In this document: positions 11,377 to 28,930 of the stretch, piece after piece | Numbering within the stretch: the stretch's first letter is position 1 | Layout of the letters: the number at the start of each line of letters is the position of its first letter | Origin: Candidatus Bathyarchaeia archaeon | GTDB taxonomy: Archaea; Thermoproteota; Bathyarchaeia; Bathyarchaeales; Bathycorpusculaceae | DNA length: 64,000 bases | Direction of reading: 5' to 3' | NCBI GenBank assembly: GCA_038883655.1 | Contig: JAVZLQ010000003.1 | Coordinates: 227,735 to 291,734, forward strand | Position numbers and translations under genes: made by a program | Notes under the pieces: generated by a model | Databases searched by the model: none | Seen by the model: the letters and a program-made list of their open reading frames with translations, nothing else | What the model was told of the DNA's origin: nothing

Positions 11377-11934
11377 TCACCATCCTTTTATGAGGCGGTT
11401 ATAGGCAAGTTCTGCTGCTTGCGCGTTCTTTTCGCCAGCAGCCCCAGTCCACGTCTCTTTTATAACTTTTAAGATACTTTGCAGTTTAACTTCACCAGTC
11501 GCCCTCGCAAATGCTCCCACAATTGCGGAATTAACAACTGGTAGCCCGGCAACAAGAAGGTTTAATTCCAGCGCAATGCCAGTTGCATCAACTGTTGCCA
11601 TTCGCCAGCCTTTAATTTCTACTTCCTCTGGTTTTTTTGTGGTGTTCATTACGATTATCCCGTCTTTTTTCAGTCCTTCTGTTATGTCGACAAACTTGTG
11701 GATTGCTGGGTCAAGTACGATAACGTAGTCTGGATTGTAAATTTGACTATGAATAAGTATCGGCTCGTCACTTATTCTTGCAAATGCCTTGACTGGGGCG
11801 CCGCGTCTTTCAGCGCCGAAATATGGGAAAGCTTGAACCCATTTCCCTTCAACAAAAGCCGCATGTGCCAACAACTCCGCAGCAGTAACGCCTCCTTGCC
11901 CACCTCGCCCATGAATACGTATTTCTTTGAGCAA
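11377..11934 (-). CDS. porG: 2-oxoacid:ferredoxin oxidoreductase gamma subunit
   Basis: HGRGGQG and FGAERRGAP motifs. Confidence 0.93.
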   Translation of the reverse strand: MLKEIRIHGRGGQGGVTAAELLAHAAFVEGKWVQAFPYFGAERRGAPVKAFARISDEPILIHSQIYNPDYVIVLDPAIHKFVDITEGLKKDGIIVMNTTKKPEEVEIKGWRMATVDATGIALELNLLVAGLPVVNSAIVGAFARATGEVKLQSILKVIKETWTGAAGEKNAQAAELAYNRLIKGW

Positions 11935-11992
11935 CGCCTCTCCCTTCTATTTGAGAGTGAAATTGGACTGCTTCGCTCTTATTAGTGTTAGC

Positions 11993-13819
11993 TTAAACTA
12001 GCGCCAAAATTAACATAAGAAGCGCGCCGCTAGTTGCAAAAATTGGAATCACCACGGCTTTTGCTCTTTTAAGGGTCTTATCTATTAAAAGGCACAGCTT
12101 TGCTAGCGAGCTTTCCCCAATAACTCTGATATCAGAAACAGTTATTGCACGGGAAGCAACGGTGGCACGTTCCATGTTGCCTAAGGCTTTTTTTGTTGCT
12201 TCTGTTATGTATGCAATTAGCTTTTCGTGGTCTATAACTTCGCCCACTGGGTGGTAACCGCGTTCATTTAAGACTATAGCGTTTACAGAGTGTGTGTCAG
12301 TTGTGAAAACTTCGCTTTCGTCAACACCGATTAAACGAAGCGCAGAAAGTATTTTTTCTCGCAACCCAGAGATCATATTATTACCGTCGATAACCACATA
12401 AGCGGTTTTCTGTTTGCCAACTCTAACGGTAACAACCGTGATGCCACCTTGCCCAATGCCATCCATAAGGCTAAACTCGCTTGGAAAGACTGTGGCAGCG
12501 CCAACTTCAAAGGGTAAACGCTTCAAGGAAACGGCCTTTTCAAGGCAGGATGAAGCAACATTCTTCAGTGAAGCAACCATTTCGTCCATGTCCAACGTTC
12601 CATCAATGCTGTTGTGCGCATTAATAATAACACAGTGTTCTAGCCCTAGTTTTTTAGCCTCTTGGCGCACTATAGCACCCAATTCTTGGGGGAAATCTTC
12701 TGTTGTTTTTGGTGCAAGTGTGAAAGCAATAAAAGCCGTTTTCCCGAAAATTTGGCAACATGCAGTTGCTTTGTCATCGCTAACTTTGATAAACGGGGAA
12801 GCCCTGTCCTCAAATACGTTAAAGTGTACGTTTTCAGCTATGCTTCTTATCGTTTTTTCATTTTGACGTTGAGAGGCTAGGTCAAACTCGTGACCGAGCA
12901 AGCCATGCGGAACGCAAACGGTGCACCCGAGCATTTCTTCCAAAGATTTCTTTATCATAAAGGGGAGAAGACTGCTTCCCACATTTTTGAAAGGTCCAGG
13001 GTGAACACAAGGCACAACCACAAGCGATTTAGGTTCTTTAGAGCGGAATTCGATTAAATCGACTTTGACATCCCGGTTTTCGCCTAGTTCCTCCAAGATT
13101 CTCTCAAATGGTTCGTTCAAATTTGTAATCCAATTAAGCAAAAAAGCCTTAAAAATCGATAAGCCCGAAAGCCCAATTACTTTAACTCCAACCTTGTTTA
13201 TTAAATGGGTAAAGAGTATACTTGAAGTGATGCTGATTGCCACTGCTGGTACTAGAAAAATAATGGAAGGAAATAGTGTAGAAGCGTCTGTCAACGTCCA
13301 TATCAACATAAATAGAAAGTAACACGAAAGTGGGTTAAGCAGCGATGCCATGAAAAGTTTCTTGGTGTTTGAGGGTGATGTGGAGAGAAGCACGGTTAGG
13401 CGAAACATCATTGCAGCAGAAAAACCTAAAAGGCATAGTTTAACTCCCCAAAGTTTACCCAAAAAAGGAGAGGACACGCTGCCGAGAAAGATGAAGAAAA
13501 GCCAGACGCCCCAACTGAATATGGATAACCCCGTTGTTCTCCTCACGTCATAGATAATGTCACCCCTTAAAATTAACGTACTATTGGCATAGTCAAAAAT
13601 CATAGTCATAAAAAGCAACAAAGCACCCAGAAGCAAACCCCATAACAAGCTAACCGGGAAGGGGAAAAGGACTAAAGTGAAAAGTTTTCCTACAACAACG
13701 CATAATAAAGCCAGAATAAGAACCATCGTACTGTAAGCTGGAAGTTTGAATAGTGAGGAGTAATGTTTAACGGCGCCGTCCATGAAATTGTTGAGAGCTT
13801 GGAAGGATTTGCCCGCCAC
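11993..13819 (-). CDS. DUF2070-family membrane protein
   Basis: N-terminal TMs; VHPGPF, HEFD, NAHN, DGNN and TDTH motifs. Confidence 0.85.
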   Translation of the reverse strand: MAGKSFQALNNFMDGAVKHYSSLFKLPAYSTMVLILALLCVVVGKLFTLVLFPFPVSLLWGLLLGALLLFMTMIFDYANSTLILRGDIIYDVRRTTGLSIFSWGVWLFFIFLGSVSSPFLGKLWGVKLCLLGFSAAMMFRLTVLLSTSPSNTKKLFMASLLNPLSCYFLFMLIWTLTDASTLFPSIIFLVPAVAISITSSILFTHLINKVGVKVIGLSGLSIFKAFLLNWITNLNEPFERILEELGENRDVKVDLIEFRSKEPKSLVVVPCVHPGPFKNVGSSLLPFMIKKSLEEMLGCTVCVPHGLLGHEFDLASQRQNEKTIRSIAENVHFNVFEDRASPFIKVSDDKATACCQIFGKTAFIAFTLAPKTTEDFPQELGAIVRQEAKKLGLEHCVIINAHNSIDGTLDMDEMVASLKNVASSCLEKAVSLKRLPFEVGAATVFPSEFSLMDGIGQGGITVVTVRVGKQKTAYVVIDGNNMISGLREKILSALRLIGVDESEVFTTDTHSVNAIVLNERGYHPVGEVIDHEKLIAYITEATKKALGNMERATVASRAITVSDIRVIGESSLAKLCLLIDKTLKRAKAVVIPIFATSGALLMLILALV

Positions 13820-14080
13820 ATGTACCCTCTCGGTAAGTCTTCAATGAGAAGCTCACTCGCATATTAAAATGTCGCAAGTCTCTGCAGAAAGGATCCTAAT
13901 GAAATTTAGGACAACCTCCTAAATAATCGGTAAAAGAGACGCAAGCCAATTTTACATAAAACTGGAAACAGAGAGGCAACGTTAAAGCATTACGGATGAT
14001 TGTATACATTAAAAAGCCATGGTTTGCCGAAGAGCAACGGTTTTATCTTCAAAGCGACTACTATGCATTTTGCGAACTGC

Positions 14081-14368
14081 ATGCCGGAACAAGAAATTCC
14101 GCCAACAATATTCCATATGCTCGAAAAGAATTTGGGTAAAAAAATACGTGTAATCTTAGACCCCTCCTATGGTTTTGAAGGGGTGCTCGCAGCGGTTACA
14201 CGCGAGCCTTCTGGCATATGGCTCTCAGATGCAGAGGCCATAATACTGCGTTCAACAATCGCGCAACCAATACCACAAGTTGCTGGTAGAGAGGAAAGAA
14301 GCGAGATATTTGTCCATTTAAACTCTGTTCAGAGAATAGAAGTTTTACACGCGCCTTCAAGGCGTTAG
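14081..14368 (+). CDS. Sm/LSm-like small beta-barrel protein
   Basis: LEKNLGKKIRVILD..FEGVL..LSDAE..IFVHLNSVQRIE resembles the Sm1/Sm2 motifs. Confidence 0.6.
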   Translation: MPEQEIPPTIFHMLEKNLGKKIRVILDPSYGFEGVLAAVTREPSGIWLSDAEAIILRSTIAQPIPQVAGREERSEIFVHLNSVQRIEVLHAPSRR

Positions 14369-14376
14369 ACAAAATG

Positions 14377-14544
14377 TTAGAAGAAGACGTTTGCTAATAT
14401 GCAGATTATTATTAGGGTTATTGCTAAGCCAACAAGAAGTTCTGGCCTAACTTTTACGCCCTCCGTTTCCTCTTCAAAAAAGCGCAGTAATCCCGCACTT
14501 GCTGCAGGCATGGGCGCTGAACGTTCCTTCTTTTTCTTGCTCAT
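14377..14544 (-). CDS. secG: Protein translocase subunit Sec61beta
   Basis: Manual translation MSKKKKERSAPMPAASAGLLRFFEEETEGVKVRPELLVGLAITLIIICILANVFF; not in ORF track. Confidence 0.92.
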   Translation of the reverse strand: MSKKKKERSAPMPAASAGLLRFFEEETEGVKVRPELLVGLAITLIIICILANVFF

Positions 14545-14655
14545 TGCGGACACCTTTTAATTCGATATTTCAACATTCGGCATTATTAATGTTATGTTTA
14601 TTTCGAAAGAGTTTTTATTTCTGAATAGCCGATATTGTGGTGCAAGGTGTCGTCG

Positions 14656-15972
14656 ATGGAGATGTACCGCAAAGAATATGATTACGTGTTTGATTTGTTG
14701 CAGAGGCACCACAAATGGTTTAAAGAATGTATTCCGCTAATAGCAAGCGAAAACATCCCAAGCCCAGCGGTTAGGGAAGCTCTAACAACAGACTTTGGAA
14801 ATCGCTACGCTGAAGGTTGGCCTGGAGAGCGCGTTTATGCTGGATGCCGCTTCATAGACCAAGTAGAGTTCAAGTGCATCGAGCTTATGAAAAAACTGTT
14901 TAGGGCAGAATTTGTTGATGTTCGCCCAATTTCCGGAGTTGTTGCAAACCTTGTTGTTTATACAGCGTTTACCGAGCCTGGCGACACCATGATGGCGTTG
15001 TCAATACCATGTGGAGGGCACATTACGATGGGAAAAAAGGAGCTTGGCGGGACAGCTGGTGCCGTTCACGGTTTGATTGTGGAGTATTTGCCGCTTGACT
15101 ACAAAGAGTTGAATATTGACGTGGACAAGGCAAAAAGTAGAATTGAAAAACTTGCGGCGGAAGGAAAACCACCAAAGCTTGTCATGTTCGGCGCAAGCGT
15201 TTTCCCATTCCCACATCCAGTAAAAGAATTGGCTGACGCAATAAGGGCTGTTGGTGGAACTGTTGGCTATGACGCGGCGCACGTTGCTGGACTAATTGCG
15301 GGAGGACAATTCCAAGATCCTTTGAGAGAAGGTGCAGACGTCGTCAGCTTAAGCACACACAAAACATTTTTCGGTCCTCAGCATGGCGGGGTTTTATCTT
15401 GGGAAAAATACGCAGATAAGCTAAAGCGGGCAACATTTCCAGGAATGGTTAGCAACCACCACTTACATGCGGTTGCGGGTGTAACAATTGCGTGCGCAGA
15501 AATGTTGGAGTTTGGAAGGGAATATGCAAGTCAAATAATTAAAAATGCTAAGGCGTTAGCACAAGCACTATACGAGAGAGGATTCAACGTTTTGGCAGAG
15601 CATAAGGGTTTCACGGAATCCCACGTAATCCTAATAGACATAACAAAGCATGGAGACGGTGGAACAATCGAAGAGACCCTTGAAAAGGCAAACATAATTA
15701 TTAACAGGAATTTGTTGCCGTGGGACATTAAAGAAGGTAGGCACTTCATGCACCCGGGTGGAATAAGGCTTGGTGTTTCAGAGGTTACAAGGCTTGGGAT
15801 GAAAGAGTCGGAAATGACGGAAATAGCGGAGTTCATAAAGCGCGTAGTAATTGACAAGGAAGAACCAGAAAAAGTAAGAGGGGACGTAGCGGAGTTTAGG
15901 AAAGATTATCAAAAGGTTCATTACTGTTTTGAGAACAGCACGGAAGCATATGAGTATATAAAAATCCGCTAA
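14656..15972 (+). CDS. glyA: Serine hydroxymethyltransferase (archaeal type)
   Basis: LIASEN, YAEG, STHKT and GIRLG motifs. Confidence 0.97.
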   Translation: MEMYRKEYDYVFDLLQRHHKWFKECIPLIASENIPSPAVREALTTDFGNRYAEGWPGERVYAGCRFIDQVEFKCIELMKKLFRAEFVDVRPISGVVANLVVYTAFTEPGDTMMALSIPCGGHITMGKKELGGTAGAVHGLIVEYLPLDYKELNIDVDKAKSRIEKLAAEGKPPKLVMFGASVFPFPHPVKELADAIRAVGGTVGYDAAHVAGLIAGGQFQDPLREGADVVSLSTHKTFFGPQHGGVLSWEKYADKLKRATFPGMVSNHHLHAVAGVTIACAEMLEFGREYASQIIKNAKALAQALYERGFNVLAEHKGFTESHVILIDITKHGDGGTIEETLEKANIIINRNLLPWDIKEGRHFMHPGGIRLGVSEVTRLGMKESEMTEIAEFIKRVVIDKEEPEKVRGDVAEFRKDYQKVHYCFENSTEAYEYIKIR

Positions 15973-16029
15973 ATATTGAAGTTTAAACGGTTGTGATAAG
16001 GGTAAATAAAAATTAAGCAAGCGATAACA

Positions 16030-22902: not shown

Positions 22903-23751
22903 TTGGAGATGAGAAGTGTGAAAGAAAATTTCAAAGTTGCACTTGCCCAAATAAACTGCTATCGTGCAGATAAAGAGAAAAACATGAGAAAAATGGAAAA
23001 GGTAATAACAAAAGTTGCAAAAGAGAAAGTAGACCTCATAATTTTTCCAGAGCTTTCGCTAACTGGCTACGTGGTTCGAGATGAAATATACAACTTAGCG
23101 GAGACAATACCCGGACCATCAACAGAGGCCATGGGAAAAATAGCAAAAAAGACGGGGATATACGTGGTCTTCGGCATGCCAGAGCTAAGTGAAAAAGCGA
23201 AGGCAACCATTTACAATTCAGCAGTGCTTGTAGGTCCGGAAGGATTTGTTGGCAAATATCGCAAGATGCATCTTCCAACCCACAGCGTATTTGAGGAAAA
23301 AAGATATTTCAGGCCAGGCTATGAGGCTGTAGCGCTTGCCACAAAACTTGGGAAAATTGGGCTAATAATTTGCTATGACATTTTCTTTCCAGAATTATGT
23401 AGACTTGCACGCCTCAAGGGTGCACAGCTCATAGTTTGCATTTCAGCTTCACCAGCGGTTAGGAAAGCCTTTTTTGAAACGTTGACAGTTGCCAGAGCGA
23501 TGGAAAACGCTGTGTTTTTAGCATATGTAAATCTGGTCGGCATAGAAGATGGACTGCAATTTTGGGGAGGAAGTAGACTCGTTGGACCACATGGGAAAGT
23601 GCTCATCCAAGCAAGGTATGACGAAGAAGACCTTGTGATATGTGATGTCAATTACAGTGATATCAAGCCAGTGGAAGTGTTTGTGCCAACGCTCAAAGAT
23701 TTACGCCCAGAACTTTTTGGTGAACTGATGGAAAGCGCTAAGCGCTTGTAA
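22903..23751 (+). CDS. Nitrilase-family C-N hydrolase
   Basis: E-K-C triad: FPELSLTGY, YRKMHLP, ICYD. Confidence 0.93.
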   Translation: MEMRSVKENFKVALAQINCYRADKEKNMRKMEKVITKVAKEKVDLIIFPELSLTGYVVRDEIYNLAETIPGPSTEAMGKIAKKTGIYVVFGMPELSEKAKATIYNSAVLVGPEGFVGKYRKMHLPTHSVFEEKRYFRPGYEAVALATKLGKIGLIICYDIFFPELCRLARLKGAQLIVCISASPAVRKAFFETLTVARAMENAVFLAYVNLVGIEDGLQFWGGSRLVGPHGKVLIQARYDEEDLVICDVNYSDIKPVEVFVPTLKDLRPELFGELMESAKRL

Positions 23752-23754
23752 CTG

Positions 23755-24936
23755 TCATGCTCGTTTAATCTTTCTAATCGCGTTCTCGATTCTGTCCATA
23801 GCCTCATCTAATTGCTCATACGCAGCAGCGTATGAAATTCTTATATATCCCTCGCCGTAGCGTCCAAAAGAAGATCCTGGAACAGTTAGTACACGCGCTT
23901 GTCTTGCAAGATATTCCGCAAACTGTTCTGAAGACATATCAAAACTTTTGATGCTGGGGAAAACGTAAAAGGCGCCTCTTGGGAGTGCACAACTAAATCC
24001 CTCCATCTCATTAAGCCTTCGATAAACCATTTGTCTTCTCCTGTCAAATTCCTTCACCATGTCTCTTACAAAATCTTGCGGTCCTTCCAGCGCAGCTAAC
24101 GCGACATACTGAGCTATACTATTGATACATGCAATTGTATGCTGGTGTATAAGCCACAATGGTAAAATGAGTTCTTTAGGGCCGTATACGAAACCAATCC
24201 GCAGTCCTGTCATCGCATAAGTCTTGGAAAAAGAGTTAACAACTAACGTGCGTTCACGCATTCCAGGGAAAGTCGCAAGGCAATAATGTTTAGTTCCATC
24301 ATAGAGTATTTTTTCATAAACCTCGTCAGAAATCACAATGAGGTCACGCTCAACGGCAATCTTCGCCAACTTCGCTGCATCGTCAAAGGAAAGAGTTGCC
24401 CCTGTAGGGTTGTTAGGATAGTTCAAAATGATCACACGTGACCTATCAGTGATAAGCGACATCACATCATCAGCAGACGGTTTGAATCCATTTTCCTCCA
24501 ATAAAGGAATAGAAACCGGAACGCCATCAACTAAACGAACGCAAGGCTCGTAACACACAAAACCTGGATCTGGAATTAAAACCTCATCGCCTGGATTTAC
24601 AAAACCGAAAAGCGCCAGAAAGATAGCCTCAATCCCGCCCGAAGTTATTAATATTTCTGAGTTGGGGTCATAGTTAAGCCCATATTCACGAAAGGCCTTT
24701 TTGGCTAATGCCTCACGCAACTCTGGAATACCGTTGGTGGGAGTGTAATGTGTTTTTCCCTCTTTTGCAGCCTTCAAACCCATTTCTATCGCATGTTGCG
24801 GAGGAGAAAAATCTGGTTCTCCTAAGCTAAGATTGATAGCATCTGGCATTTCTTGGGTTAAAGCGAAAAATCGGCGAATTCCAGACGGCTTTACGTTTTT
24901 TAGGCGCTTTGCGGGCTTAGATCGAAAAGTCAACAA
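23755..24936 (-). CDS. Class I/II PLP aminotransferase (AspC-like)
   Basis: NYPNNPTG, SDEVY and SFSKTYAMTGLRIG motifs. Confidence 0.94.
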   Translation of the reverse strand: MLTFRSKPAKRLKNVKPSGIRRFFALTQEMPDAINLSLGEPDFSPPQHAIEMGLKAAKEGKTHYTPTNGIPELREALAKKAFREYGLNYDPNSEILITSGGIEAIFLALFGFVNPGDEVLIPDPGFVCYEPCVRLVDGVPVSIPLLEENGFKPSADDVMSLITDRSRVIILNYPNNPTGATLSFDDAAKLAKIAVERDLIVISDEVYEKILYDGTKHYCLATFPGMRERTLVVNSFSKTYAMTGLRIGFVYGPKELILPLWLIHQHTIACINSIAQYVALAALEGPQDFVRDMVKEFDRRRQMVYRRLNEMEGFSCALPRGAFYVFPSIKSFDMSSEQFAEYLARQARVLTVPGSSFGRYGEGYIRISYAAAYEQLDEAMDRIENAIRKIKRA

Positions 24937-25075
24937 TCCCCCTCAATATGCACTGGTTCTTAGAGGATAAAATATTTGCGTTGCAAAGTTTACAAAACCT
25001 ATGTTTCAAGCAAGGTTTAAAACGAACCTTGTATACAAATCTGTATTCATACAAGAGGGCAGTGGTTGAAAGAGT

Positions 25076-25543
25076 TTGAAACTAAAAGAGAACGTTCACT
25101 TATGGTTAGTGCGCTCTTTAAGTGACCCCATAGTCGAAATACTCTACAAAAATAGCCATTTAACGAAAACGCAGCTTGAAACGTTACTTATAGACATTTT
25201 AGCTGAAAATATATCTGGAAAAATCTTAAATTACGATGAAAAAGCCAGATTAAGGTTAACAAAGGCAAAAATAAGCCGAGGGGCATTTAATAGGACTTTA
25301 AAACAAGCCAAAGGAAACGTCATAAGATCCATATACACCATACTACTGTTAGGATACTTAGGCGTGTTTGAAAGCACAACTCTTGACCCCTACATCGAAA
25401 TAGCAAACAGATTAAAAGAATATGTAGAGGCACATAAAAACATGGCAAACACGAACGAAAGACTGAAGATCCTAAAAATTATTAGAGAAGAACTTGAAAC
25501 AAGTTTAAAAAAGCTATCAAATACCTCGCCAAGTGAAATGTGA
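25076..25543 (+). CDS. Uncharacterised HTH-like protein
   Basis: LTKTQLE..ISRGAFNRTLKQAK looks like a recognition helix. Confidence 0.7.
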   Translation: MKLKENVHLWLVRSLSDPIVEILYKNSHLTKTQLETLLIDILAENISGKILNYDEKARLRLTKAKISRGAFNRTLKQAKGNVIRSIYTILLLGYLGVFESTTLDPYIEIANRLKEYVEAHKNMANTNERLKILKIIREELETSLKKLSNTSPSEM

Positions 25544-25771
25544 CATCACAAGTCACGTGGAATTCCTACAAGCTCTTTCTTCCGAACTCTTCGACGGCGA
25601 AAATTGACCTTAAATTAGAAAAAGATTCAAAAGTAGGCTTTATCGCAAACTCTATGGAATAGCAGTTATTTGCACGCTTTTGTGATGTGTGATGTCATGA
25701 TGGGACCATGTTACGGTAAAGGTAAGCATAATCTTTAAATCCTTTGTATGCAAACTGTGATGTGTGATGTC
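25533..25771. repeat. Cluster of (T/C)GTGAnnTGTGATGTC repeats
   Basis: 25541-25557 (minus, CGTGACTTGTGATGTCA); 25681-25696 and 25756-25771 (identical TGTGATGTGTGATGTC). Confidence 0.85.
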
Positions 25772-25800
25772 TATGGATAAATCACAAATGAATCATGTAG

Positions 25801-26529
25801 GTGTTTGATTTGGAAGCTTGGGTGTTTGCTTTAATCTTAGCAGCTTTAACGGTCATCGTTTGTTATGTTTATTATAGGCAGCTTCAAAAGGTACGCAATG
25901 AATATGAAAGCGCAAAAGCTGTTGTTAGCGATATAGTTTTAAGTTTTAATAGGCAGCTGAAGCAGGAATCGGAAAGGATGAATTTAATTGCATATAAAGT
26001 TGATGCTGCAGCCTCGAAGGGTGACAGCGCAAAGAAGGCCGTTGAAGATGTTTGTAAGAAAATTGAATCTTTAGGGACTAGAGTTGGCACGTTAATAAGC
26101 GAAAAAGAAGTTGTAACAAGAAGAATGGATGAAATAGCTAAAGCATTGCAAGAAAATATAAACATGCAAAGGAATTTAGCTGCGCGTCTTGCTATAGTTG
26201 AGGAGCACGTAAAGCATTCCACGGTTGTTTCAGATGCCAAAATTGAAGCGGTAATCCCCATAAGAAGGGAAAAGGCATTATCTCCACTTACTGAAACTGA
26301 GGTATCGGTTTTGGACATGTTAGCGTCTGAGGGCCCGAAAACAGCACCTGAAATAAAGGAGAGAATTAAGCTTAGTAGAGAGCATACTGCACGTTTAATG
26401 AAGAAACTCTACGAGGAAGGTTATTTGGATAGGGATACAAGTAGAATTCCATTTAGGTATAGCGTAAAAGAAGAGATGCGAAGGCTGCTGAAGCGGACGG
26501 AAAACGAGCAAGCCCAGCCGCAATCATAA
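25801..26529 (+). CDS. Membrane-anchored coiled-coil protein with C-terminal winged helix
   Basis: N-terminal TM (WVFALILAALTVIVCYVYY), heptad-like middle, then LTETEVSVLDML..SREHTARLMKKLYEEGYLDR..PFRYSV. Confidence 0.85.
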   Translation: MFDLEAWVFALILAALTVIVCYVYYRQLQKVRNEYESAKAVVSDIVLSFNRQLKQESERMNLIAYKVDAAASKGDSAKKAVEDVCKKIESLGTRVGTLISEKEVVTRRMDEIAKALQENINMQRNLAARLAIVEEHVKHSTVVSDAKIEAVIPIRREKALSPLTETEVSVLDMLASEGPKTAPEIKERIKLSREHTARLMKKLYEEGYLDRDTSRIPFRYSVKEEMRRLLKRTENEQAQPQS

Positions 26530-26531
26530 AT

Positions 26532-26960
26532 TTAAGGTGTTTGCCTTTCAATTATTGCCTTTGGATAGCTAGTTGTTAACTTGTACTTTAGGGTTCTTGA
26601 AGCCCCAGTCCTTAAGAGCAAGCCCTTACTCGACATTCTCGAAAGGTAAGTGGCCACCGTGCTAAGTCCTATAGGTTCCTTAAATTCTTGCTCGTAAGCC
26701 AGTTGAACATCATGTGATGTAAACCACACTAATGGAAAGTGCTTCTGGACAACAATACGTACTTTATCGTATTTAGAAAATTCATTTTCCAAAACTTCCT
26801 TGTTTGATTCGTTGGCTCTGCCGGCTGGCACACCGCCCAAGAGTTCCACGAGATCTAAGAGACGAAGAGCGTTTTCCCTAGTAATTTGACCTTCAAACGC
26901 TATTGTGTAGCGGTTACCGTCTTCATCGAAGAGTTCGACTCGTATCTTTCGGGCGGGCAT
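26532..26960 (-). CDS. Uncharacterised protein with C-terminal winged helix
   Basis: FTSHDVQLAYEQEF..LSTVATYLSRMSSKGLLLR..YKL. Confidence 0.8.
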   Translation of the reverse strand: MPARKIRVELFDEDGNRYTIAFEGQITRENALRLLDLVELLGGVPAGRANESNKEVLENEFSKYDKVRIVVQKHFPLVWFTSHDVQLAYEQEFKEPIGLSTVATYLSRMSSKGLLLRTGASRTLKYKLTTSYPKAIIERQTP

Positions 26961-27158
26961 TAATGTCGTACACCCAAGTGTATTCACAACTTTGCAGTTA
27001 ACAAGTTATAGGTATTATGGTGAAAAAGTTGCGCAGAAAAAAGCGCAAATATTATTTAAAAACTGGAAAAGAGGAAGAAATTCAATTTTTCAATGATTAC
27101 AAGGTTCACAATCGCTTAATTTTTTCGCTTCTAATAGAAAAAGAATAGAACATAATTC

Positions 27159-27178
27159 TCCAGTAGAAAGGCAGGGGT
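27159..27178 (+). promoter_or_regulatory. Origin recognition box ORB1
   Basis: TCCAGTAGAAAGGCAGGGGT fits TCCAnTGGAAA plus G-string. Confidence 0.9.
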
Positions 27179-27376
27179 GCCATGTTCACAATAAAGACGC
27201 ATGAAAAAGGCAATTTTTTTTACAATAAACGAAAAAAGAAGCATTTTCTCTTAAATTTCACACGAGCATCACAATTTGTGAAAATTTTAATTAAGTTAAA
27301 GTTACATAAAAATTTGAGAGAATAATAAAGTAAGGGTAAGAAAGGGCGTTATAATTGATTGAATTTTGTCTGGCGC

Positions 27377-27397
27377 ACCCCTGTATTTCCATTGGAA
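27377..27397 (-). promoter_or_regulatory. Origin recognition box ORB2
   Basis: Minus strand TTCCAATGGAAATACAGGGGT. Confidence 0.92.
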
Positions 27398-27549
27398 AAT
27401 GTGGTTTGGTGTTGGATATTTTAGCAAAAGCAAATTACTGGTAAATATAATTTTTTTAACTATAACTTTTATAATTGCACTGTCATCCTTTACCTTCCAG
27501 AGTATATTTCTTGTTAGCAAGAAATCAGCATTAATCCGTAGAATAAAAA

Positions 27550-27571
27550 GTTCCAGAGGAAATTATGGGGT
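27550..27571 (+). promoter_or_regulatory. Origin recognition box ORB3
   Basis: GTTCCAGAGGAAATTATGGGGT. Confidence 0.92.
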
Positions 27572-27679
27572 GTGACTTGAAAGTTTGTTAAACTTTGAAT
27601 TTAGTTTTCTGTAGTGAGATACTTATTACTCCAGAGGGAGAGTAGGCATATCCTTTGAAATTTCGGAGGAGGCTTCGTA

Positions 27680-28930
27680 ATGAGCGACACAAAAATCCTT
27701 GATGAGTTATTCTCGAACTTCATTGGAAATGCAAAAATATTCAGGGATAGGAGCGTGTTGCGACATGATTACTTGCCAAATAAGTTGCCGCATCGTGAGG
27801 AACAAATTAGGCTACTTGGTGAAAAAGTGGCTCCCGCTTTAAAAAAGGAGCGATGTTCAAACGTTTTCATTTATGGTAAAACGGGGACAGGGAAAACTGC
27901 CGTTGCGAAATATGTGTTAAGCCACCTCGAAATTAAGGCGAAAGAGTACGGTGCACCTGTAAAGTTCTGCTATGTAAATTGTCGAATGGCTGGTTCTGGG
28001 TACCGCGTTTTTGCAAATCTATGCCACAGCATTGGGACGTACGTGCCCTTCACGGGGTTATCTGTTGGCGAGGTCTTTGATAGATTTCGAGCGGCGCTGG
28101 ATATGTTGCAGTTGATATTTATAGTGGTTTTGGATGAAATAGACGCTTTGATAAAGACGCGTGGGGACGGCCTCCTATACGAACTAACTAGGATAAATGA
28201 AACTTTGCATCAAAGTAAGTTGTCTTTAATTGGTATCTCAAACGACCTGCGGCTTAAGGAATTTTTTGATCCGCGTGTTTTTAGTTCGCTCAGTGAAGAA
28301 GAAATTGTTTTTAGGCCCTATGACGCGAGTGAACTTAAAAATATTCTGCTTGAACGTGCTAAGCTGGCTTTTAATGAAAATGCCTTGTCTGAATCCGCGT
28401 TGAGCTTGTGTGCTGCGTTGGCGGCCGCTGAACATGGCGACGCCAGGCGAGCGTTGGATTTACTTCGGGTTTCAGGCGAAGTTGCTGAGCGTGTTGGGGC
28501 TTCTGTTGTTACAGAAGAACATGTGCGAGAGGCTGAAAAGCATATAGAGCATAACCGCGTTGTTGAGGCGCTGAAAGACTTGACTTTGCATTCAAAACTT
28601 GTGATTTTAAGTGTGTACCATTTGGATAGGGCGGGTGTTAGTAGCACCATCACAGGCGAAATTTATGAGGTGTACGGGGAGTTATGTGGAGAATTGGGTG
28701 TTGCACCTTTAACGCAGAGGCGATTGGGAACGCTTGTGAACGAACTTGACGCCATGGGAATGCTTAATGCAAAAGTTATAAGCATGGGGCGTTATGGCCG
28801 CACAAAAAAGATTAGGCTGGAGATAGCCCGTAGTCTTATTAGGGACGTGTTTGGTAATGACATTAGGCTTGGGCGTTTGATTGATTATGCGCCGAAATGC
28901 CTTTCGAAGAATTCCCGTGGTAGGAGTTGA
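27680..28930 (+). CDS. cdc6: Orc1/Cdc6 replication initiator
   Basis: Walker A GKTGTGKT, Walker B LDEID, GDARRALDLL, wing GRYGRT. Confidence 0.98.
   Translation: MSDTKILDELFSNFIGNAKIFRDRSVLRHDYLPNKLPHREEQIRLLGEKVAPALKKERCSNVFIYGKTGTGKTAVAKYVLSHLEIKAKEYGAPVKFCYVNCRMAGSGYRVFANLCHSIGTYVPFTGLSVGEVFDRFRAALDMLQLIFIVVLDEIDALIKTRGDGLLYELTRINETLHQSKLSLIGISNDLRLKEFFDPRVFSSLSEEEIVFRPYDASELKNILLERAKLAFNENALSESALSLCAALAAAEHGDARRALDLLRVSGEVAERVGASVVTEEHVREAEKHIEHNRVVEALKDLTLHSKLVILSVYHLDRAGVSSTITGEIYEVYGELCGELGVAPLTQRRLGTLVNELDAMGMLNAKVISMGRYGRTKKIRLEIARSLIRDVFGNDIRLGRLIDYAPKCLSKNSRGRS

Follow-up and report, generated by a model that had tools for sequence, protein, structure and literature searches.

A GTGA half-site array beside a predicted archaeal replication origin and its candidate membrane-anchored binding protein

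Introduction

Why would a cluster of short DNA repeats and three small genes for DNA-binding-type proteins stand directly beside a predicted archaeal replication origin (oriC), and could they hold that origin at the cell membrane? The question is raised by a 64,000-nucleotide (nt) stretch of a Candidatus Bathyarchaeia archaeon genome (GenBank assembly GCA_038883655.1, contig JAVZLQ010000003.1, positions 227,735 to 291,734), which we call the window and whose coordinates are used throughout unless another contig or locus is named. The three genes are referred to here as A155, TMCC and W151, and the repeats are built from GTGA half-sites. According to the original prediction, which was made from the letters of the window, the product of TMCC carries a transmembrane (TM) helix, a coiled coil and a winged helix-turn-helix (wHTH) domain, and could bind the repeats and fasten the origin region to the membrane.

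Chromosome organization and separation in archaea are largely unknown beyond the Sulfolobus and haloarchaeal models. The module described here is a concrete candidate for such a role, with an array of 20-odd half-sites found once per genome beside oriC, three small proteins and a homologous locus in the cultured archaeon Nitrosopumilus maritimus (ABX13693.1). Literature searches, including the accessible portions of PMC4010727 and PMC3914693, returned no description of an A155-TMCC-W151 module.

Results

The repeats are composite sites confined to one locus

The window lies within a 292-kb contig of a genome assembly of 1,423,015 bp (19 contigs, 93% complete, 6.5% contamination). The 9-mer TGTGATGTC, on which the original prediction was built, occurs exactly five times in the window, at 23641(+), 24458(-), 25542(-), 25688(+) and 25763(+), just as had been claimed. 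The accompanying uniform-base estimate was about 0.5 copies per window; dinucleotide shuffles of the window give a mean of 0.20, and none of 100 shuffles reaches five. Genome-wide there are 11 copies, with five of the 11 packed within 2.1 kb, and a Poisson estimate for this clustering, corrected for all windows, is about 7e-9. The longer form (T/C)GTGAnnTGTGATGTC, which had been described as usual, is present in four of the five window copies; the remaining copy at 24458 has one mismatch on the extension side and further half-sites on the opposite side. The six genomic copies outside the locus lack the extended form.

When the five copies are compared side by side, the unit is seen to be built from GTGA half-sites, with the 17-mer GTGAnnnGTGAnnTCAC as its basic unit and the 9-mer as the core of a composite half-site arrangement. 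The 17-mer has two perfect matches in the genome, which are the two strands of one palindrome (site S1 below), and six matches with one mismatch, three of them at 23635, 24449 and 25682 and the other three scattered elsewhere. At up to one mismatch, then, five of the eight matches in 1.42 Mb are at the locus. Exact 17-mers in five other genomes (0.9-2.5 Mb) fall at the same module in 10 of 12 cases, and a reversed-pattern control gave 0. The genome-wide count that the original prediction had called for therefore finds the motif restricted to the locus, both here and in five relatives.

Only one other place in the genome, C2:48389-48437 on a different contig, reaches four or more half-sites per 150 bp. 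There, a small Trp/Pro/Arg-rich open reading frame (ORF) is preceded by a TATA-like box with the palindromes TGTGATACATCACA and TGTGATATATCACA on either side. We did not count this cluster as part of the same system, given its different spacing (GTGA-n4-TCAC) and its place at another promoter; it is probably the operator of a different regulator.

The sites are conserved at the level of DNA

TMCC was matched in 35 of the 41 genomes of the same order, and about 12.7 kb were fetched around all 35, which together with the window gives 36 loci. All genomes except those of Nitrosopumilus are metagenome bins, and the relatives are kin, so that the counts given here overstate independence. The motif is found at orthologous places in the 35 related genomes. 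At up to one mismatch, the 17-mer makes up 112 sites across the 36 loci, all of them between NadE and TMCC. The spacer between A155 and TMCC holds 74 of these (at least one site in 34/36 loci), the aminotransferase gene holds 22, all at a single position (found in 22 of 23 loci with the gene), and six are in the spacer left where the aminotransferase gene is absent. Half-site density is 23.7 per kb in the A155|TMCC spacer and 3.06 per kb in the aminotransferase gene; it is 0.74 per kb in the origin spacer W151|Cdc6, 0.57 per kb in the A155 promoter spacer and 0.51 per kb in the whole genome.

The aminotransferase gene offers the clearest view of what is being conserved. Its cluster at 24432-24465 consists of five half-sites on both strands, TCAC-ac-GTGA-n7-GTGA-n3-GCGA-n2-TCAC, and includes a 17-mer with one mismatch from 24449. 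Across 22 orthologues, with 122 conserved columns holding amino acids of at least three-fold degeneracy, the lowest codon entropies are at V158 (GTG in 21/22), S166 (TCA in 21/22) and V168 (GTG), and all three are half-site positions; the conservation at synonymous sites that the original prediction had proposed to look for is indeed present. The codons of the motif spacer vary freely and even change amino acid, e.g., residue 159 is M, T, I or R, with the first base always A. Of the 116 windows of seven qualifying columns, none but the motif window itself is so low in codon entropy. Genomes without the aminotransferase retain a remnant of about 20 codons, VTSL(I/V)TxxSRVI, which carries the same five half-sites while the rest of the gene is gone, and four more half-sites lie about 40 nt from it. 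The remnant was seen in 9/9 inspected spacers, with an exact 17-mer in 6/9. The site thus survives the decay of its gene, and is therefore kept for its own sake.

The most distal site, at 23634-23670 (+), is within the C-N hydrolase gene, at its 3' end, and reads TGTGATATGTGATGTC followed by GTGATATC, with a one-mismatch 17-mer from 23635. It is matched at the same place in just 4/36 loci (the window, L021, L022 and L025), and is therefore either young or weakly kept. The 9-mer copies found in NadE of several relatives were set aside, as each is a single dyad encoded by a conserved D-I-T-P peptide and not a site of this kind.

Rearranged loci bear on where the clusters are held. In loci with A155 inverted (L177, L179 and L180) or 7 kb away (L182), the clusters stay at the 3' end of A155 and upstream of TMCC. 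In the class-level relative L182, A155 is also separated from a HypF-like gene by 3.3 kb (at 12000-15450) in which no ORF exceeds 81 amino acids (aa). A unit of 1.0-1.2 kb stands there in about three tandem copies, all of them decayed, and each copy retains an intact motif (ATGTGATATAATGTGAYATCACA), so that the array is expanded.

Invariant sites bracket the predicted promoter of TMCC

Site S1 (25533-25556, both strands) is a 24-bp palindrome of four half-sites, GTGAAATGTGACATCACAAGTCAC, that overlaps the stop codon of A155, with the TGA itself forming part of one half-site. This site follows the A155 stop throughout the order, and other families have it there too, also where A155 is inverted or lies at a distance of 7 kb. 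The spacers between A155 and TMCC of 13 family members were aligned, and while their flanks are too diverged to align, the site blocks are invariant. Their order is S1, about 130 variable nt, S2 (TGTGATGTGTGAYRTCAT), about 25 nt, CCATAATCTTTAAAT (read as the B recognition element (BRE) and TATA box), about 15 nt, S3 (ACTGTGATGTGTGATG), two ATCAC half-sites, a GGAGG-like stretch and the start codon.

In the window, S2 (25682-25698, +) reads GTGATGTGTGATGTCAT, is invariant in the family alignment and lies about 30 nt upstream of the TATA box. The block at 25727-25740 (+), a conserved CATAATCTTTAAAT in 13/13 aligned spacers, would be the BRE/TATA box of TMCC by the rules for archaeal promoters. 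S3 (25756-25771, +; TGTGATGTGTGATGTC) has two mismatches to the 17-mer and covers the expected transcription start, about 16 nt past the TATA box. S4 (25781-25796, -) consists of two inverted half-sites (ATCACAAATGAATCAT) in the leader, with a GGTG/GGAGG-like stretch and then the start codon behind it; the family alignment shows a conserved ATCAC...ATCAC, of which the second copy reads ATCAT in the window. Sites on either side of the predicted TATA box and over the expected transcription start are a repressor-type layout, and since S2, S3 and S4 bracket that box, they would be at least operators of the TMCC gene.

The promoter of A155 has no GTGA site. A second element, GTATACAAAnnTGTATYCA, stands instead at 25031-25049 (+), about 45 bp upstream of the A155 start, and is a near-palindrome just 3' of a TATA-like CTTAAAA. 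Its GTATAC is found at this position in 35/36 order-level loci and in class-level relatives, and the element would most likely serve as operator for another of the module's proteins. A related TTTGTATAGCTATG, resembling this element, is seen in Nitrosopumilaceae. Rfam searches (E up to 0.1) of window positions 23000-28000 and of L182 positions 11500-16000 gave no matches in either. Among sequencing runs, none was listed as holding RNA, two labeled metatranscriptomic being flagged as probably DNA, and the reads examined yielded only short contigs, which carry no information on transcripts, their starts or their levels.

TMCC is a predicted membrane-anchored winged-helix protein

The architecture assigned to TMCC (25801-26529, +) in the original prediction is well supported, with hydropathy, helical periodicity, Pfam scores and conservation in relatives all agreeing on an N-terminal TM helix, a heptad-periodic coiled-coil region and a C-terminal MarR/TrmB-type wHTH. 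Translation may start at TTG 25810, which has GGTG 7 nt upstream and where the Atlas record begins (residue 4). The top-scoring hydrophobic window of 19 residues begins near residue 4 in 31/32 aligned relatives, with a median Kyte-Doolittle value of 2.34. The count of Lys and Arg is 0.44 before the helix versus 4.5 after it, and because of this bias we predict an N-out/C-in topology. As this is the single N-terminal hydrophobic window, merely about 3-20 residues would be exposed outside the cell, and TMCC therefore has no sensor domain. In the middle region, Pro+Gly make up 4% and hydrophobic residues recur with a dominant period of 3.52. The coiled-coil sequence is variable, whereas the juxtamembrane motif, the wHTH and its recognition helix SREHTARLMKKLYEEGY hardly change among relatives.

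Residues 163-222 of TMCC score above the cut-offs of PF01047 MarR (32.5 bits; cut-off 24.6), PF01978 TrmB (29.2; 25.6) and PF13463 HTH_27 (24.8; 22.2). Members of the MarR family proper are soluble proteins of about 140-150 aa, in which N- and C-terminal helices form a dimer interface around the wHTH. TMCC falls outside that family in this strict sense, with profile positions 1-51 of 59 matched at its C-terminus and the rest of the protein taken up by the TM helix and heptad region. TMCC and W151 each reach 17.3 bits against Penicillinase_R (BlaI/MecI; PF03965), below its cut-off of 22.6.

A155 and W151

A155 (25076-25543, +) encodes an all-helical protein of 155 aa and is present in 35/35 order-level loci. 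Its earlier label as a helix-turn-helix (HTH) protein was not confirmed, as no Pfam or NCBIfam model matches it. The AlphaFold2 model is confident, with seven helices and a predicted local distance difference test (pLDDT) score of 84. The best match to PDB sequences had an E-value of 0.58, and the best Foldseek match to PDB folds an E-value of 0.39; the TFIIB/cyclin-like folds listed among the latter were too weak to be used. An Atlas cluster match of 0.79 provides a weak lead to Sigma70_r4, with 14% of the cluster members carrying PF04545, and we suspect that LTxxQ...SRGAFNRTLKQA is an HTH resembling sigma region 4. Fused or longer forms of A155 were found twice, and neither was informative.

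W151 (26532-26987, -) is transcribed away from the origin, as originally noted, and its winged-helix assignment agrees with the structural model. It consists of a beta-beta-alpha N-domain, a disordered linker and a C-terminal winged helix, and Foldseek matches its AlphaFold2 model to RosR, Fur and MarR at an E-value of about 0.008 and a probability of 1.0. By comparison with relatives, translation most likely begins at 26960 (MPARK). W151 is present in 34/35 order-level loci and 11/11 Nitrosopumilaceae loci, and is divergent from cdc6 across the origin repeats in all loci.

No replication protein domain was detected in A155, TMCC or W151 with Pfam and NCBIfam. A complex prediction for TMCC residues 27-242 with A155 scored 0.00, and as its controls were not run, it counts neither for nor against binding. 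Genomes G033, G034 and G035, which lack TMCC, also gave no A155 match with this query, so the two candidate binders are not separated by their distribution.

The predicted origin and the depth of the module

The original prediction had placed an origin to the right of the three genes, and the window bears this out with an inverted pair of repeats at 27155-27180 and 27375-27400 that we take to be like the consensus of archaeal origin recognition boxes (ORBs). The arms are separated by 194 bp of AT-rich DNA, and cdc6/orc1 follows at 27680-28930 (+; Cdc6_C 2.2e-26, Cdc6_lid 4.5e-25). Inverted ORBs, an AT-rich stretch and an adjoining cdc6, by which archaeal origins are recognized, are thus all found at or beside 27155-27400, making this a sequence-predicted oriC. 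Weak support also comes from cumulative GC skew, which has a local minimum about 5 kb from the ORBs on this contig.

The order A155, GTGA array, TMCC, W151, ORBs and cdc6 is kept across Bathyarchaeia and in Nitrosopumilus, so that the test of linkage to cdc6 named in the original prediction comes out in its favor. In the order-level sample, A155 and TMCC are adjacent in 35/35 loci, and Cdc6 is seen in 31/35, the other four stretches reaching a contig end. Neighboring enzyme genes (aminotransferase, C-N hydrolase, NadE and EndoDU) are present in some of the same loci and absent from others. An insert of 2.6-2.9 kb separates TMCC from W151 in 14/34 loci (e.g., L024:3554-6137), and in 13 of these 14 it encodes a protein of 330-350 aa and a divergent HerA/CedD-like ATPase, both on the strand of W151. 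The 330-350-aa protein has no family, with a hint of NurA at an E-value of 0.13, and tblastn found no match to the HerA-like pair in the genome of the window.

A TMCC profile matched 231/301 genomes of the phylum, with the weakest matches being perhaps unrelated winged helices. It matched 45/45 genomes of the family containing Nitrosopumilus, including N. maritimus ABX13693.1; source annotations of the Nitrosopumilus homologues read "winged helix DNA-binding protein" or "MarR family regulator". All 11 Nitrosopumilaceae loci carry GGGPS, an A155-like gene, TMCC, W151 on the opposite strand, ORB-like repeats, cdc6 and the PolD small subunit, with Cdc6 itself seen in 10/11 and the remaining stretch reaching a contig end. 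The TMCC homologues there retain the N-terminal hydrophobic helix, the coiled-coil stretch and the helix SREHTSRLMKKLF, and the A155 homologue ends ATG-TGA or TTG-TGA inside GTGA. The 265 bp upstream of TMCC contain 7-12 GTGAY half-sites versus 0.6-1.2 expected (11.4-fold pooled), mostly as direct repeats, unlike the dyad of Bathyarchaeia. Nine further loci from other families have cdc6 within 2 kb in 6/9 cases. The N. maritimus origin presumably lies beside cdc6. According to the review PMC4010727, a single origin has been mapped in this organism.

Three observations from these relatives are recorded here in their own right. An ORF of about 50 aa (…ISIPKQFRKYMDIQKGEYVKV…), which looks like an AbrB/SpoVT-type DNA-binding protein, stands between the TMCC and W151 homologues in L173 and other Nitrosopumilaceae loci. 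The sequence TCACGTGA occurs in 11/11 Nitrosopumilaceae regions; in L171, L173 and L175 it falls inside the wHTH part of the TMCC gene, where it encodes T-S-R-D, and either a coincidence of coding or an internal site could explain it. Lastly, a 5.9-kb contig of one order-level bin (L055; G003:C26) carries a second, diverged copy of the module with C-N hydrolase, A155, TMCC (51% identical to that of the window), W151, Cdc6, EndoDU and the PolD small subunit. As bin G003 reports 7% contamination, this copy is probably from a second organism.

Discussion

A candidate tether on one side of the origin

We are firm in reading the array, from its sequence and conservation, as a putative protein-binding platform that is old, unique in the genome, under selection as DNA and tied to the module of a predicted membrane-anchored binder. 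Some of the sites must serve TMCC as an operator, given the promoter layout. Most likely, the protein that would bind the GTGA sites is TMCC, through a dimeric winged helix, and not A155 or W151. The GTGA repeats would then be composite sites and the single genomic target of a binder encoded in the same module. Binding at S2, S3 and S4 around the TATA box would make TMCC autoregulated, with the array presumably repressing transcription, while S1 and the distal clusters in the aminotransferase and hydrolase genes would extend the bound region to 1.3-2.2 kb. TMCC fixed in the membrane and sitting on the array would hold DNA 1.5-4 kb from oriC at the cell membrane, and bringing this DNA to the membrane may matter for origin positioning.

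That this autoregulated, membrane-anchored binder, with its sole genomic target flanking oriC, is an origin-side membrane tether is the reading we prefer, and we put its chances a little short of even. We favor it because a regulator with its own locus as its only target makes little sense, which would leave DNA binding itself as the function; because the array is far larger than self-repression needs; because the likeliest binder is an integral membrane protein without a sensor domain; and because linkage to oriC has outlasted extensive gene turnover nearby. The original proposal of a tether is therefore supported in part, namely in its restriction to one locus, its linkage to cdc6, the synonymous conservation and the architecture of TMCC. 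It is limited by the promoter-bracketing sites, by an origin spacer without sites and by clusters that are kept at both A155 and TMCC.

Several observations weigh against a tether, and these limits are among them. Sites bracketing the promoter would be expected of a plain repressor, and the origin spacer lacks a GTGA array, its half-site density of 0.74 per kb being that of the background. The whole GGGPS-to-PolD region is syntenic, so origin linkage is not specific to the three genes. The insert behind TMCC moves the array further from oriC in 14/34 relatives, and one genome has a portion of the array as far as 9 kb off. A155 and W151 are as local as TMCC, with putative DNA-reading helices that are equally conserved. 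S1 remains on the stop codon of A155 in loci where this gene is inverted or 7 kb from TMCC, which agrees no less well with A155 as the binder. Nor do the related genomes count as independent samples. Finally, RicO of Staphylococcus aureus, the nearest known protein by mechanism, has nine sites over about 700 kb, compared with one cluster of about 2 kb at TMCC's own gene here.

An extension of the tether reading is that the module is a centromere-like origin anchor of archaea which predates the split of Bathyarchaeia and Nitrososphaeria and positions or helps separate sister origins, with A155 and W151 as accessory DNA-binding factors. We regard this as unlikely. If it were true, it would supply origin positioning or separation in lineages without a described partition system.

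Weighing the alternatives

The most serious competing explanation, which we consider quite possible, is that the module is a local transcription circuit and nothing else. The GTGA operators would let A155, W151 or TMCC control TMCC and perhaps A155, the distal clusters would be auxiliary operators for looping around A155, the anchor would control the regulator by sequestration or proteolytic release, and oriC linkage would reflect inherited gene order or the dosage or timing of early replication. S2, S3 and S4 around a conserved TATA box are in the classic position of an archaeal repressor, and the different palindrome on the A155 promoter in 35/36 loci adds to a multi-operator layout. Clusters 0.4-1.1 kb apart flank A155 as in looping systems, the origin spacer is free of sites, the synteny of the wider region means that origin linkage may be passive, and homologues are annotated as MarR-family regulators. 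Yet some 20 half-sites with no other genomic target are elaborate for self-control, and an anchor exposing about 3-20 residues offers no sensor domain. The A155-array-TMCC-W151-ORB-cdc6 order has also survived across two classes despite the turnover of enzymes, and sites in coding regions 1.1 kb from the regulated promoter are retained even after the gene around them has decayed. Even if only this circuit were real, the locus would remain a clear case of a selected site inside an enzyme gene that outlives the gene, and a deeply conserved neighbor of archaeal origins of which no description was found in our literature searches, including the accessible text of PMC3914693.

The bound array could also act on replication itself as a control or domain-boundary element that limits or times initiation, e.g., by origin-flank sequestration or as a roadblock or insulator, perhaps in concert with W151 and with the HerA-like ATPase whose gene follows that of W151 in relatives. 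In keeping with this, the array stays at the same place on one side of oriC in two classes, and in every locus W151 and cdc6 point away from each other with the ORBs between them. In 13 relatives, W151 is also the first gene of a run that includes the 330-350-aa protein and the HerA/CedD-like ATPase, a member of the DNA-translocase superfamily, and RicO is described as both a regulator and an insulator of origins. We nonetheless hold replication control to be improbable, for there are no sites in the origin spacer, the W151 promoter or the cdc6 promoter, the HerA-like pair is missing from this genome and from most relatives, and none of the three proteins has a replication protein domain. Far less probable still is that the repeats have no function of their own and that coding constraint and common descent have preserved them. 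Conserved enzyme genes do contain two of the five copies, the single 9-mers in NadE of several relatives are explained by the D-I-T-P peptide, and kinship inflates the independence of the counts. This explanation is contradicted, however, by synonymous positions that are the most constrained in the aminotransferase gene while the amino acids of the motif spacer change, by a site that outlives the loss of its gene, by invariant sites in a non-coding spacer with unalignable flanks, by the recurrence of half-site arrays in another class and by the window-corrected Poisson clustering estimate given above.

Comparison with known systems

The earlier description of the repeats as "parS-like" holds as an analogy only. 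ParB/parS, archaeal SegAB and AspA-ParB-ParA systems use short repeats near the gene of the binder and the origin, with sites in coding regions and autoregulatory operators. The present locus is alike in having a few short repeats by the gene of the candidate binder near the origin, inside coding regions and apparently doubling as operators. A155, TMCC and W151 have no ParB-type domain, as no such family was found in any of them by a Pfam scan (E up to 0.1). As the original prediction had also observed of ParA and SegAB genes, the window contains none: no ParA/MinD/SegA-type ATPase scored above cut-off within it, with the matches to PF01656 and PF13614 lying outside C3:227735-291734. Because it has no motor partner, the module would be at most an anchor and not a partition machine.

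Repressors of the MarR/TrmB/BlaI type share with TMCC its wHTH, which exceeds the MarR and TrmB cut-offs, and a GTGA-n2-TCAC dyad around a promoter is repressor-like. Unlike in MarR and TrmB, only the wHTH core of about 50 residues matches, and the helical dimerization domain is replaced by a TM helix and a coiled coil of about 110 residues. Bacterial ToxR and CadC and ArnR of Sulfolobus are membrane-bound regulators that have an extracytoplasmic or membrane-embedded sensor and control other genes. TMCC resembles them as a predicted membrane-tethered DNA-binding domain acting at a promoter, but unlike them it has neither a sensor part nor several membrane spans, and no detectable target beyond its own locus.

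RacA of Bacillus subtilis is a coiled-coil DNA binder that recognizes ram sites and fastens the origin region to the envelope through DivIVA, without a TM helix of its own. Binding of DNA in the origin region, a coiled coil and a link to the envelope are features that TMCC would have in common with it, whereas TMCC has its own TM helix. The RacA model NF009647 matches only the coiled-coil part of TMCC (E 0.04), and because its 13.9 bits compare with a cut-off of 165, TMCC is not a member of that family.

By mechanism, the nearest system is RicO/ricS of S. aureus. RicO is described as joining a membrane-binding helix to a coiled coil and a DNA-binding domain, with ricS sites that are origin-proximal, and TMCC with its array would share a DNA-binding domain, a coiled coil, a membrane element and origin-proximal sites with it. 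The order of the parts is reversed, with an N-terminal DNA-binding domain and a C-terminal amphipathic helix in RicO and an N-terminal TM helix and a C-terminal wHTH in TMCC. RicO is bacterial, and the resemblance is one of architecture. The role proposed for RicO in that account, anchoring origins at the membrane, is the same as that suggested here for TMCC.

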